Assembly: GCF_026626745.1 (NCBI RefSeq)
Contig: NZ_JAPNJW010000002.1
Span: 1,382,151 to 1,446,150 of the forward strand
Reading direction: 5' to 3'
DNA from: Nannocystis sp. RBIL2
GTDB lineage: Bacteria > Myxococcota_A > Polyangia > Nannocystales > Nannocystaceae
DNA: 64,000 nucleotides
A model generated the notes under the pieces. The model was given only the letters and a program-made list of their open reading frames with translations, was not told where the DNA came from and made no database searches. Position 1 is the first letter of the stretch. The number at the start of each line of letters is the position of its first letter. A program made the translations under genes and the position numbers. This document shows, one piece after another, positions 53,850 through 54,445 of the stretch.

Positions 53850-54183
53850 GACCGGCGTCGGCACGGACGAGGAGCGCGGCGGAGAGGCGCACCTGGATCA
53901 TCTCCGGGTGCGCCGGGCTGAGCTCGAGCTCGAGAACCTCGACCGCGCGCGCGAGCAAGCCTTCGCGCGTGGGGCCGGGGTCGGTGGCGACGGCGAGGTT
54001 CATCAAGGTATAGCCGACCTCGCGATGCTCTCGCCCGAGCGGATGGCCTCGGCCTCCGCGCCGCCGCGGTCGCCTGCGAGAGGCCGATGTAATTCCGAAT
54101 GAAGATGAGCCCACAGCCCCGTGAGCTCTCTCCCCTGGCCCCACGTCCGTGCGAAACTTTTCGACACAAGGAGACAGACACAT
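53850..54183 (-). pseudogene. Degenerate TPR-repeat remnant, 3' end cut by the IS66 end
   Basis: LGREHREVGYTLMNLAVATDPGPTREGLLARAVEVLELELSPAHPEMIQVRLSAALL resembles TPR_10/12 units (LG.eHP.va.tLnNLA). Frameshifted upstream. Confidence 0.3.
54046..54181 (+). promoter_or_regulatory. AT-rich box / 5' leader module, copy 1
   Basis: 54046-54108 is identical to 58335-58397 and contains the box GCCGATGTAATTCCGAATGAAGATGA (54083-54108). CGACACAAGGAGACAGACAC lies directly before ATG 54182 (AAGGAG RBS). Confidence 0.6.
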
Positions 54184-54445
54184 GACTGCCCATAACTCGA
54201 AGGGCCCAGCCCCAATTCAGGTCCCGGCGTCCGACAGCCCGCTCCAAGCAGGAGCCACCATCACCGGTGTTATCGTCAACATCGACCACCAATCACGTTG
54301 GGTCACCGTTCACGCTGGTCTGAAGTCTGAAGCACTTATCCCGATTGAGCAGTTCTACAACGATGCTGGCGAACTGACCATCAACGTTGGGGATGAAGTT
54401 CAGGTCGCTTTGGATTCGGTTGAAGATGGGTTCGGCGAGGTCTAG
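54182..54445 (+). CDS. Chimeric small ORF: conserved leader ([13 protein letters not shown]) fused to a ribosomal protein S1 domain-1 fragment
   Basis: [87 protein letters not shown]. From LQAG onward it aligns with residues ~18-86 of E. coli S1 ([64 protein letters not shown]). Codons are A/T-rich. Confidence 0.6.

Follow-up and report, generated by a model that had tools for sequence, protein, structure and literature searches.

An in-frame fragment of Pseudomonas-type ribosomal protein S1 in Nannocystis as a probable member of a mobile family of mosaic small proteins

The subject of this analysis is a short open reading frame (ORF) of the myxobacterium Nannocystis sp. RBIL2, in which a fragment of a foreign ribosomal protein S1 is read in frame behind a leader that recurs in the same region. 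It lies in a window of 64,000 nucleotides (contig NZ_JAPNJW010000002.1 of assembly GCF_026626745.1, positions 1,382,151 to 1,446,150), which is the whole stretch of DNA that was analysed and to whose first letter the coordinates below refer unless another locus is named. The ORF runs on the forward strand from the ATG at 54182, preceded by AAGGAG, to the TAG ending at 54445, as it had been placed by a first-pass annotation made from the sequence alone, and its 87 amino acids comprise a 20-residue leader, 66 S1-like residues (LQAG...DGFGE) and a final valine. The leader, previously given as 18 codons, occupies 20 (54182-54241), the S1 homology beginning at 54242. The product is annotated by NCBI as an 'S1 RNA-binding domain-containing protein', and the gene is composed of the following parts.

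54161 to 54181, forward strand: shared 5' untranslated region (UTR) with ribosome-binding site (RBS), CACAAGGAGACAGACAC preceding the ATG; together with the leader 89% and 71% identical to the copies at 59426 and 58625, respectively.
54182 to 54241, forward strand: leader of 20 codons, 'NSKGPAP / GRGPAPI' type, as in the paralogues ORF A and ORF B, in Streptomyces leaders and in the leader of Nocardia P0219.
54242 to 54439, forward strand: captured piece, predicted from homology searches and AlphaFold/Foldseek to be the entire folded core of the first S1 domain (residues ~18-83 of the Pseudomonas protein) without the N-terminal uS2-binding segment.
54440 to 54451, forward strand: end of the S1 homology in DNA alignments, GTC TAG CTG ATC against ACC AAG CTG TCC in rpsA.

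The identity of the piece is evident from several searches. The NCBIfam model of 30S ribosomal protein S1 matches the ORF with an E value of 2.5e-21 and the Pfam S1 domain with 3.1e-5, while phmmer, applied to 5.8 billion proteins, returned the N-termini of Pseudomonas S1 (E 6.6e-30, 88% identity). In a donor scan of 185,579 species, each represented by one genome, the 80 best loci are almost all labelled Pseudomonas, mostly of the fluorescens group, and reach 89% amino-acid identity; the exceptions are one record labelled Leclercia and one unclassified gammaproteobacterium. The best nucleotide match, in Pseudomonas sp. Fl4BN1 (L050), is identical at 176 of 198 positions (88.9%); of the codons that differ, 13 do so synonymously and 8 non-synonymously. 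The piece retains a two-residue insertion, YQ(A/S)RW, by which the S1 proteins of this Pseudomonas lineage are set apart from those of other gammaproteobacteria. The piece has been copied at the level of nucleic acid from the rpsA gene of a fluorescens-type Pseudomonas. The foreign, proteobacterial origin of the domain, proposed in the first-pass annotation, is thereby borne out and narrowed, and the two sources that could have spoken against it, the host's own rpsA and a myxobacterial family of small S1-domain proteins with the same N-terminus, are ruled out by best matches that are almost all Pseudomonas: the best match is not a myxobacterial rpsA, and no such small-protein family was found.

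The composition of the piece accords with this origin. The G+C fraction at third codon positions (GC3) is 0.58 in the piece and 0.52-0.55 in the same stretch of Pseudomonas rpsA, compared with 0.80-0.87 in the neighbouring host genes, so that the earlier remark on A- and T-ending codons unlike those of the host is confirmed; around the piece the G+C content falls locally to 0.565-0.595. The copy is nevertheless not a pristine one, since seven residues that are invariant in 59 fluorescens-type Pseudomonas sequences are changed in it and 13 of its 198 nucleotide positions are unique with respect to the same set, without any AT-to-GC bias among these changes. The unique changes crowd into the first 54 nucleotides, which hold eight, against five in the remaining 144.

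At the 3' end, the stop codon of the ORF derives from a lysine codon of S1 (GTC TAG CTG against ACC AAG CTG, encoding T K L), and beyond approximately 54451 no S1 homology could be detected by DNA alignments, blastn or tblastx. Of the suggestion that the triplets after the ORF are a decayed continuation of S1, the part concerning the stop codon stands, and the part concerning the sequence beyond it does not, as nothing recognisable is left there. Searches of the same 3' region for a decayed copy of the helical unit described below, or for any other known sequence, were empty with blastn, tblastx and hmmsearch alike. At the 5' end, the N-terminal S1 residues MSESFAELFEESLKTLN are replaced by the leader, the N-terminal helix MSESFAELFEESLK is absent and the homology starts at about residue 18 of the Pseudomonas protein (LQAG). 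The ORF thus holds one S1/OB domain in 87 amino acids, as compared with six, or at least four, tandem domains in about 550 for the rpsA product, and the NCBIfam S1 models score it at 75 bits against cut-offs of 524-918.

The AlphaFold model of the ORF has four strands (residues 26-35, 40-44, 50-54 and 72-76), and Foldseek matches it to domain 1 of Escherichia coli bS1 in ribosome, S2-S1 and Qbeta-replicase structures (9gup_B, 2mfi, 4toi, 4r71) with a root-mean-square deviation of 2.6-2.8 Å and 58-62% identity, the E value going down to 5e-6 for 9gup_B, 2mfi and 4toi. The model shows a predicted product comprising the whole four-stranded core of domain 1 and not the ribosome-tethering N-terminal segment. 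The limits of the folded core of domain 1 have been set at Gly21-Gly79, and it is residues 1-18 that tether S1 to uS2; a construct of residues 19-106 neither binds ribosomes nor displaces S1, while the N-terminal segment alone inhibits translation (PMC4288201). Domains 1 and 2 (OB1 and OB2) together anchor S1 to Qbeta replicase (beta-subunit) (PMC4176380). The likeness to fluorescens-group rpsA is accordingly confined to residues ~18-83, where it extends over 88-89% of the amino acids, 88.9% of the nucleotides, the YQ(A/S)RW insertion and the four-stranded core of domain 1; the ORF differs from rpsA in having one of six domains, no uS2-binding segment and an unrelated leader. Nor does it share the cmk-rpsA gene order of Pseudomonas (seen in L001), for there is no cmk neighbour, an IS66 remnant lying upstream and a GSCFA gene downstream.

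The sequences in front of the S1 piece are not peculiar to this gene. The RBS and leader are present three times in the window, at 54161, 58625 and 59426, the copy of ORF B being 89% identical over 85 nucleotides and that of ORF A 71%, in agreement with the first-pass observation that the piece stands in frame behind a repeated local module. The sequence CAAGGAGACAGAGACATG, as in the 5' UTR of the window, recurs upstream of the genes at 9058 and 6198 of a Streptomyces locus (L004), and the leader type is found also in L004:18152-18475 and L004:14133-14399, in the proteins P0142, P0148 and P0122, and in Nocardia P0219. Farther upstream lies a non-coding module whose 22-nucleotide core (GCCGATGTAATTCCGAATGAAGATG) occurs four times in the window, with none expected (repeat families D4 and D16). 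Three of its copies precede ORFs of the family to be described and one precedes a set of GSCFA-WcbI-glycosyltransferase genes; no sigma-70-like promoter was detected in the module, and Pfam gave no support to its being a remnant of a TPR gene. The paralogues, the copies of the module and the nearest transposase remnant are arranged as follows.

52612 to 53805, forward strand: remnant of an IS66-family transposase directly upstream of the S1 ORF (Pfam DDE_Tnp_IS66, E 3e-29), given as context only, in a region rich in insertion sequences (IS).
54082 to 54144, forward strand: upstream module, copy 1 of 4, from the core GCCGATGTAATTCCGAATGAAGATG and alignment.
54707 to 54769, forward strand: upstream module, copy 2, preceding the GSCFA-WcbI-glycosyltransferase genes (54848-58118) and not a family ORF.
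58372 to 58434, forward strand: upstream module, copy 3, from repeat search and alignment.
58646 to 59029, forward strand: ORF A, 127 amino acids, with leader, helical-hairpin unit (58763-58888) and tail (58889-59026), from repeats and hmmsearch.
59315 to 59377, forward strand: upstream module, copy 4, from repeat search and alignment.
59447 to 60001, forward strand: ORF B, 184 amino acids, with leader, unit (59555-59677), EF-1alpha piece (59678-59764), 5'-truncated unit (59783-59893) and tail (59894-59998), from Pfam, NCBIfam and hmmsearch.

ORF A is modelled by AlphaFold as a helical hairpin (helices 18-43 and 48-63) with a disordered tail, the latter being of a recurrent 'PNGSPIGDDY..P.P' type, which is present likewise in P0302 and at least six other proteins. 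ORF B carries, 5 kb from the S1 piece, another stretch of a foreign translation gene that is read in frame: the 29 residues between its two units are of eukaryotic EF-1alpha type (Pfam GTP_EFTU; NCBIfam EF-1alpha, E 1.8e-5), with apicomplexan EF-1alpha as the best database matches at 81-96% identity. The arrangement of unit and EF-1alpha piece is colinear with Streptomyces L002:10092-10291 and is the same in Streptomyces P0123 and Kitasatospora P0122, while the tail of ORF B is common to P0164 and P0167. A six-frame hmmsearch found helical units in the window only at 58763, 59555 and 59783, and these are 80-86% identical in DNA to Streptomyces units. An 886-nucleotide metagenome contig from ENA (L093, 46% GC) has a 34-residue EF-1alpha piece as in ORF B, no helical unit and short tandem repeats upstream, and the segment directly after the piece resembles, judged by eye, a degenerate SdhA. 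Considered at one point as a eukaryotic EF-1alpha exon that would trace the capture to DNA, this contig proved to be another mosaic and uninformative; it may be a different kind of mosaic or a donor lineage.

Genes built in this manner form a family. A word-indexed search with ORF B, followed by a profile, yielded 74 clusters, and an exhaustive HMMER search of 1.84 billion representative proteins yielded 195, including 162 at E<=1e-10. The named sources are Streptomyces, Kitasatospora, Embleya, Nocardia, Nonomuraea and Nannocystis, all but the last being actinomycetes, and the JGI metagenomes contained one family locus. Members consist of a leader (..EGIQQIPAQITV..PAA, or ..NSKGPAP.. / ..GRGPAPI..), a unit of 42 amino acids (..ARDKLLAAIGAEAQhVAEKSAGQASAALAELARAYALVT), predicted to be a helical hairpin, and a hypervariable tail, predicted to be disordered; longer members repeat the unit and a variable piece up to five times, and in P0208 and P0209 up to five units are kept in one frame. 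The unit has no match in Pfam, NCBIfam, PADLOC, the PDB sequence profiles or, by Foldseek, the PDB folds, and no meaningful match in PHROGs. In some members, the same leaders are paired with a second module (MAYDKDALPVDDFTGEGVVDVDK... / ..VKPEDIGTLSIEYRDGxPV.VVSGG..). Within 20 kb, the L004 locus, of Streptomyces sp. NPDC001903, has at least 12 family genes, of which those at 3181-4013, 6198-6536, 9058-9435, 11024-11617, 14133-14399 and 18152-18475 join the leaders to the second module and further pieces; the latter look like the start of an hnRNP-type RRM and a secretin. No description of such mosaic genes was found in the literature searched, and the family is previously undescribed and fits no described kind of system.

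The S1 ORF shares with this family the conserved 5' UTR, RBS and leader (NSKGPAP / GIQQIPAQI type) and the in-frame foreign piece, although in a six-frame hmmsearch of the window no 42-residue unit was found in or after it. Since its homologue in Nocardia has two units after the S1 piece, the ORF is, judged by its sequence, probably a truncated relative of the family rather than a full member.

This homologue, P0219 of Nocardia sp. NPDC020380, is central to the history of the fusion. It is ordered as leader, S1 piece, unit, a piece of EF-G domain II, leader-unit and second module, and BLASTP aligns it with the Nannocystis ORF at 62% identity over 77 residues (E 2e-27), straight through the leader-S1 junction and with a single four-residue gap; in DNA, the two genes have the same junction and a 12-nucleotide indel. 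Both mosaic copies read IDH and GDEVQVALD where 80 of 80 Pseudomonas loci read IDY and GDEVHVALD, and three of the six Nannocystis sites that are absent from all 80 coincide with Nocardia-specific sites. Because the junction is shared with the Nocardia gene, the sequences show a fusion that predates the arrival of the gene in Nannocystis, and the fusion is an inherited, horizontally moving lineage of a mostly actinomycete family. Over the 21 codons at the 3' end of the two S1 pieces, nine synonymous and no non-synonymous differences were counted from the alignment, and the Nei-Gojobori estimates of non-synonymous (dN) and synonymous (dS) divergence are 0.095 and 1.28 for Nannocystis against Nocardia and 0.048 and 0.205 for Nannocystis against Pseudomonas. 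The Nannocystis piece is the longer of the two at both ends.

The variable pieces of other members are of comparable kind. A Pfam census of 150 members gave Flagellin_N 10 times, Flagellin_C six times, RRM_1, Phage_base_V, HSP70, GTP_EFTU and L14 twice each, and a Gram-negative porin (Porin_4) and M28 once each. Searches of the PDB with excised pieces identified EF-G (best 6n0i and 4fn5, E 8e-12), EF-Tu (6e-9), DnaK (3e-7), EF-1alpha (3e-9), eukaryotic uL14/L23 (3e-6) and eIF4A (7e-4). The recognisable pieces therefore include S1, EF-G, EF-Tu, DnaK/Hsp70, flagellin, porin, VgrG and Rhs together with eukaryotic EF-1alpha, eIF4A, uL14 and RRM proteins, the flagellin pieces being closest to short FlaB-type flagellins such as 6pwb FlaB1. 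Further pieces, recognised by eye only, we take to be secretin, CS1/SCPU-type pilin, C2-domain, hnRNP-type RRM, esterase and EFL-type sequences. Where their type could be judged, by database tools for S1, EF-1alpha, eIF4A and uL14 and by motifs for DnaK and EF-Tu, the pieces are proteobacterial or eukaryotic and not actinobacterial; for EF-G, the donor type depends on the two best PDB entries, which we take to be Pseudomonas proteins. Of about 220 variable segments, at least 20 come from a handful of translation and chaperone genes, a share that we estimate to be far above uniform sampling of genes. S1 itself reappears in P0283/P0309, which end in ADEFADLFEESLK followed by RGITITSAAI, that is, residues 3-14 of the S1 N-terminal segment joined directly to an EF-G piece, and N-terminal pieces of S1 are therefore recurrent cargo of the family. 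The peptide corresponding to this helix piece inhibits S1-dependent translation (PMC4288201).

How intimately foreign sequence and unit can be combined is illustrated by a 470-residue ORF of Streptomyces sp. NPDC058239 (L002:11015-12427), which reads leader, flagellin N-terminal and middle parts, unit, flagellin C-terminus, leader-unit and the end of an Rhs core. In it the unit replaces about 28 flagellin residues, the C-terminal part of the flagellin comprises 27, and the Rhs end falls exactly at ..DPTGH. The gene has orthologues in S. hirsutus and other Streptomyces, and mosaic genes are likewise kept between species in the sets P0212/P0312/P0313/L002 and P0213/P0310. Current annotations of these genes are misleading in that they name a member, for example in Streptomyces, after its embedded fragment, as with 'RHS repeat-associated core', 'phage baseplate assembly protein V' and 'flagellin N-terminal helical domain'.

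The conserved parts bear the marks of coding sequence. Across 19 full-length, 126-nucleotide copies of the unit from six loci, the entropy is 1.11 at the third codon position and 0.68 and 0.59 at the first and second, and because the third positions vary most the unit is constrained as protein and not as a site in DNA or RNA, an alternative that is also disfavoured by the lack of an Rfam match. Comparison of the EF-1alpha piece of Nannocystis with that of Streptomyces gave a dN of 0.058 and a dS of 0.87, and the sequence comparisons together show protein-level constraint on both units and pieces, with estimated dN/dS of ~0.07-0.2 for pieces. All 21 units recovered in six-frame searches of six loci lie inside family ORFs, and those ORFs that were called have a start codon and an RBS.

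The surroundings of the genes are those of mobile DNA. In every host, family genes have a GC3 (0.68-0.86) that is in most cases lower than in the genes around them (mostly 0.83-0.97). Family loci are rich in transposase remnants; some are found at the ends of chromosomes or contigs, as is L007, which lies 2.5 kb from a linear chromosome's end, and others, such as L095, in mid-chromosome. The genes P0133 and P0138, 99% identical, stand in unrelated contexts that have only an 845-bp segment in common (L089:5579-6423 and L091:1465-2308, both Streptomyces; 97.75% identical), comprising a family gene and the tail of a coiled-coil ORF, with 4 differences in the 399 nucleotides of the gene against 13 in about 420 of its upstream flank and no obvious inverted repeats at its ends. 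The DNA that holds the family genes is IS-rich and atypical in composition, and the genes move from one context to another and between phyla. No tblastn match was found in 72,556 plasmids or 50,697 phages, and none in IMG/VR; with the lack of a meaningful PHROG match, this led us to reject phage- or plasmid-borne cargo as an identity for the family. In the window and ten family loci there is no reverse transcriptase, Cas protein, Cas1, integron integrase or any accessory gene shared besides the family itself, only assorted transposases and one serine recombinase, and in about 76 kb of family loci there are no fragments of rRNA or tRNA.

Taken together, these data make it probable, in our view, that the S1 ORF belongs to an undescribed, horizontally mobile family of mosaic small proteins. 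A family gene consists of a conserved 5' UTR and RBS, a short leader, one or more units, sometimes the second module, and variable pieces between and after these; many of the pieces are portions of abundant, conserved proteins that belong to other organisms, copied so as to stay in frame. Such pieces could be gained when stray foreign nucleic acid is inserted at the boundaries of modules in an illegitimate, microhomology or end-joining type of event, and recombination in the conserved units could then reshuffle them between paralogues. The unit has a sharp end after ..AYALVT, the leader-unit modules are variably truncated on the 5' side, and the leader/rpsA 5' junction, the one junction for which both parents are known, has a few nucleotides of possible overlap; because of the joins at module boundaries and this short overlap, end-joining of foreign DNA fragments is the route that we favour. 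To our knowledge, all of the host groups are proficient in non-homologous end-joining. DNA fragments as the source of the pieces come close to an even chance in our estimation, while complementary DNA (cDNA) of abundant mRNAs is the chief alternative, a possible but not a likely source.

A scheme in which reverse transcriptase jumps between the family transcript and other RNAs, the product being integrated as a processed pseudogene or chimeric retrogene, would explain several features at once: the recognised pieces derive mostly from top-expressed genes (S1, EF-Tu, EF-G, uL14, DnaK/Hsp70, EF-1alpha, eIF4A, RRM, flagellin, porin), by our estimate far above uniform sampling; in the eukaryotic pieces the coding sequence runs without interruption; very short pieces are joined end to end, as residues 3-14 of S1 with 'RGITITSAA' of EF-G in P0283/P0309; and the 5' truncation of the leader-unit module, with its sharp end, is of the kind expected. 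The first-pass suggestion of a processed-pseudogene-like capture of an abundant mRNA thus gains from the enrichment for highly expressed genes and loses by the lack, at the window and ten family loci, of a reverse transcriptase and by the lack of poly(A) tracts and of rRNA or tRNA pieces. Moreover, the donor RNAs are foreign to the hosts and would have to be imported, and selection for useful conserved peptides would yield the same enrichment, so that we consider this scheme unlikely. Capture closer to home, in which a predatory Nannocystis recently took nucleic acid directly from Pseudomonas prey and placed it behind a local expression module, was another early suggestion, and the DNA identity of 88.9% to fluorescens-group rpsA, the essentially unameliorated GC3 in a host of far higher values, the dS of only ~0.2 and the extension of the piece beyond the Nocardia piece at both ends would all suit it. 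It is nonetheless improbable, as the leader-S1 junction is homologous in P0219, sites absent from 80 of 80 Pseudomonas loci coincide in the two mosaic copies, the leader-unit family is mostly actinomycete with Nannocystis units 80-86% identical in DNA to those of Streptomyces, and the 13 unique positions of 198 carry no AT-to-GC bias.

The remaining alternatives deny that there is a functional mosaic protein, or a mosaic at all. The ORF could be a frame open by chance across pseudogene fragments that were acquired horizontally in a recombination-prone region full of IS elements, and the pieces of the family merely neighbouring junk that is read through; IS66 and IS4/5 remnants do lie all around, the stop codon falls within the S1 homology, the ORF has no unit, long chance ORFs arise in high-GC DNA and the tails of some members, such as P0196, resemble out-of-frame translation. 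Against such debris, which we hold to be rather improbable, speak the codon-position constraint in the units and the low dN/dS in the pieces, the five units in one frame of P0208 and P0209, the start codon and RBS of every ORF in which a unit was found, the mosaic genes conserved across species, and the better conservation of the gene than of its flank in the 845-bp mobile segment. A genuine small S1-domain RNA-binding protein, as annotated by NCBI, would fit the Pfam and NCBIfam matches and the modelled four-stranded core like that of bS1 domain 1, but there is no such family, the only relatives being full-length S1 and the mosaic Nocardia protein, and the leader belongs to the mosaic family; this alternative is very improbable. 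Misassembly at the ORF is unlikely, because two Nannocystis assemblies (records MCY0992214.1 and MCY1069196.1) contain an identical protein together with both of the neighbouring family genes, in the same gene order. An assembly chimera or contamination, for which the compositional break and the frequency of Pseudomonas as a contaminant could be cited, is in addition hardly credible for a piece that is only 89% identical to any of the 80 Pseudomonas loci, measures just 198-210 nucleotides, is in frame with a leader repeated in the host and has a homologous junction in Nocardia.

Several observations weigh against membership in a mobile mosaic family as we have described it, or against parts of that explanation. 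The S1 ORF has no unit, stops inside the S1 homology, stands among IS66 remnants and may be non-functional; on its sequence, a still-expressed short variant and a decaying remnant are about equally likely. Synonymous divergence is highly uneven, dS being 0.2 between Nannocystis and Pseudomonas and 1.2 between Nocardia and Pseudomonas, with a GC3 of 0.73 in the Nocardia piece, and the almost unameliorated state of the Nannocystis piece sits uneasily with a single old capture after which both copies resided equally long in high-GC hosts. Unequal residence times in such hosts could possibly account for it, as could a donor that has not been sampled or a partial re-conversion of the piece by fresh DNA from Pseudomonas. 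Independent captures from different donors would also produce a signal of purifying selection, although the shared junctions argue otherwise. No enzyme able to explain capture is linked to any of the 10 loci, and recognition of pieces favours highly conserved proteins, so that the predominance of abundant proteins is partly an effect of ascertainment.

As regards function, the proteins could act at the protein level, the copied segments serving as mimics of, or baits for, the partners of the parent proteins, which we regard on sequence grounds as possible rather than likely. For S1, the obvious target of mimicry, the ribosome, is excluded (PMC4288201), which also tells against our explanation. 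The idea of a decoy of the S1 N-terminal domain, raised in the first-pass annotation, is accordingly weakened in its ribosomal form: the piece has no uS2-tethering segment, and a domain 1 core without residues 1-18 is inactive on ribosomes, S1(19-106) neither binding them nor displacing S1, so that a competitor for the ribosome is disfavoured (PMC4288201). In another form of the idea, the piece would be a decoy for factors binding the core of domain 1, for example the beta-subunit of Qbeta replicase. A more far-reaching proposal, which we offer as a speculation with rather poor prospects, is that actinomycetes, and by transfer a predatory myxobacterium, sample coding fragments of their neighbours' most abundant conserved genes by a dedicated, selectable route, possibly via RNA, fix them in frame on a helical scaffold and keep them as proteins, a 'non-self' library of mimics, interfering peptides or baits against competitors, prey, parasites or their viruses. 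The donors in such sampling would be Pseudomonas-type Gram-negatives and eukaryotes. If true, bacteria would have a way of copying short coding segments from foreign housekeeping genes, those of eukaryotes among them, of keeping the segments in frame and of retaining them through selection. This would bear on the origin of new genes, on the flow of genes across kingdoms into soil bacteria, and on mimicry in competition, predation or defence. The family is tractable, with small genes, identifiable donors and, in the N-terminal segment of S1, a cargo of known inhibitory activity.

Comparison with known systems reveals partial likenesses. The integrated decoys of plant NLR proteins, and decoy or mimic proteins generally, similarly join a conserved scaffold to a copied fragment of a protein targeted by the factors of others and are kept under selection; the family differs in having no fused or consistently adjacent NLR/STAND protein and in copying from other species and not from the host, and its mimicry is only putative. 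Pack-MULEs and Helitrons of plants, one-ended transposition of ISCR/IS91 elements and template-switch retrogenes of long interspersed nuclear elements also combine short gene pieces with a conserved element into chimeric ORFs that spread as a family, chimeric retrogenes sharing, in addition, the enrichment for highly expressed donors. Unlike these, the family is bacterial, its unit has no transposase or reverse transcriptase, the constraint is on protein and not on DNA ends, the donors are foreign species including eukaryotes, and the pieces are in frame.

A conserved N-terminal module (about 75 residues in the family) with a hypervariable tail, many paralogues per genome, shuffled variable parts and a location in variable genome regions are features shared with polymorphic toxins and their orphan cassettes, PE/PPE proteins and libraries of ribosomally synthesised and post-translationally modified peptides (RiPPs) such as the prochlorosins. 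Yet the 150 members have no toxin domains by Pfam, family genes are not followed by immunity genes, and the Rhs-like tails stop exactly at the ..DPxGH core end; there are no modifying enzymes, RRE protein or leader peptidase/transporter in the window or family loci as would be expected of RiPP precursors; the unit resembles neither PE nor other solved helical domains in sequence or fold; and the tails, unlike those of all these systems, include housekeeping fragments of other organisms. The Bell proteins of the BASS system have a five-helix Bell domain with a hydrophobic N-terminal helix and a C-terminal motif equal to the N-terminus of an adjacent NLR, and are absent from Myxococcota (10.1101/2020.01.06.895854). 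The family unit, by contrast, is a predicted two-helix hairpin behind a hydrophilic leader, with no adjacent NB-ARC or NACHT gene and only a distant NACHT gene in L090. A diversity-generating retroelement, which is defined by a nearby reverse transcriptase, paired template and variable repeats and adenine-specific substitutions, is at variance with the absence of a reverse transcriptase from the window and with none of the 13 unique substitutions of the S1 piece being at an A, and CRISPR or RT-Cas1 systems, defined by a non-coding repeat-spacer array with cas genes, with repeats that are protein-coding and constrained as protein, and with the absence of cas genes and of any PADLOC match. The DRT2 product 'Neo' reportedly consists of concatemeric, cDNA-encoded ORFs of helical repeats (Tang et al. 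and Wilkinson et al., Science 2024 are said to describe it), its defining features being a UG2-type reverse transcriptase with a non-coding RNA and near-identical tandem repeats made from cDNA, and it resembles the family in repeating a predicted helical unit of ~40 residues within one ORF; the family is, however, genome-encoded, its units are diverged (median pN 0.27) and interspersed with foreign pieces, and it has no locus of reverse transcriptase and non-coding RNA and no PADLOC match. Bell/BASS, RiPPs, polymorphic toxins, diversity-generating retroelements, CRISPR and DRT2 were each rejected as the identity of the family for want of a defining feature.

Some further features of the window may be recorded. 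From 44 to 64 kb it is a patchwork of IS66 and IS4/5 fragments, with additional remnants at 45884, 50499 and 61927. Inverted repeats at 28312-28577/51214-51479 (266 nucleotides, 87% complementary) and 51327-51413/52827-52913 (87 nucleotides, 89%) are linked to the IS66 remnants at 45884-46384 and 52612-53805. The segments 44176-44616 and 60533-61014 share repeats of 98-100% identity, a 58-nucleotide inverted pair and direct repeats of 208 and 103 nucleotides, and are probably insertion-sequence copies; the inverted arm at 60533-60590 overlaps the 3' end of a Cys-rich ORF (60171-60602). A palindromic motif, AGGACATGTCCTC, which could be the binding site of a regulator, recurs at 9487-9528 (in tandem, at 9487 and 9501), 14493, 18499 and 30777. 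Finally, a large secreted-type M36 fungalysin with a PA domain (22828-26571) and a Jacalin-like lectin protein (48514-50151), neither linked to the S1 fusion, fit a predatory or lytic lifestyle.

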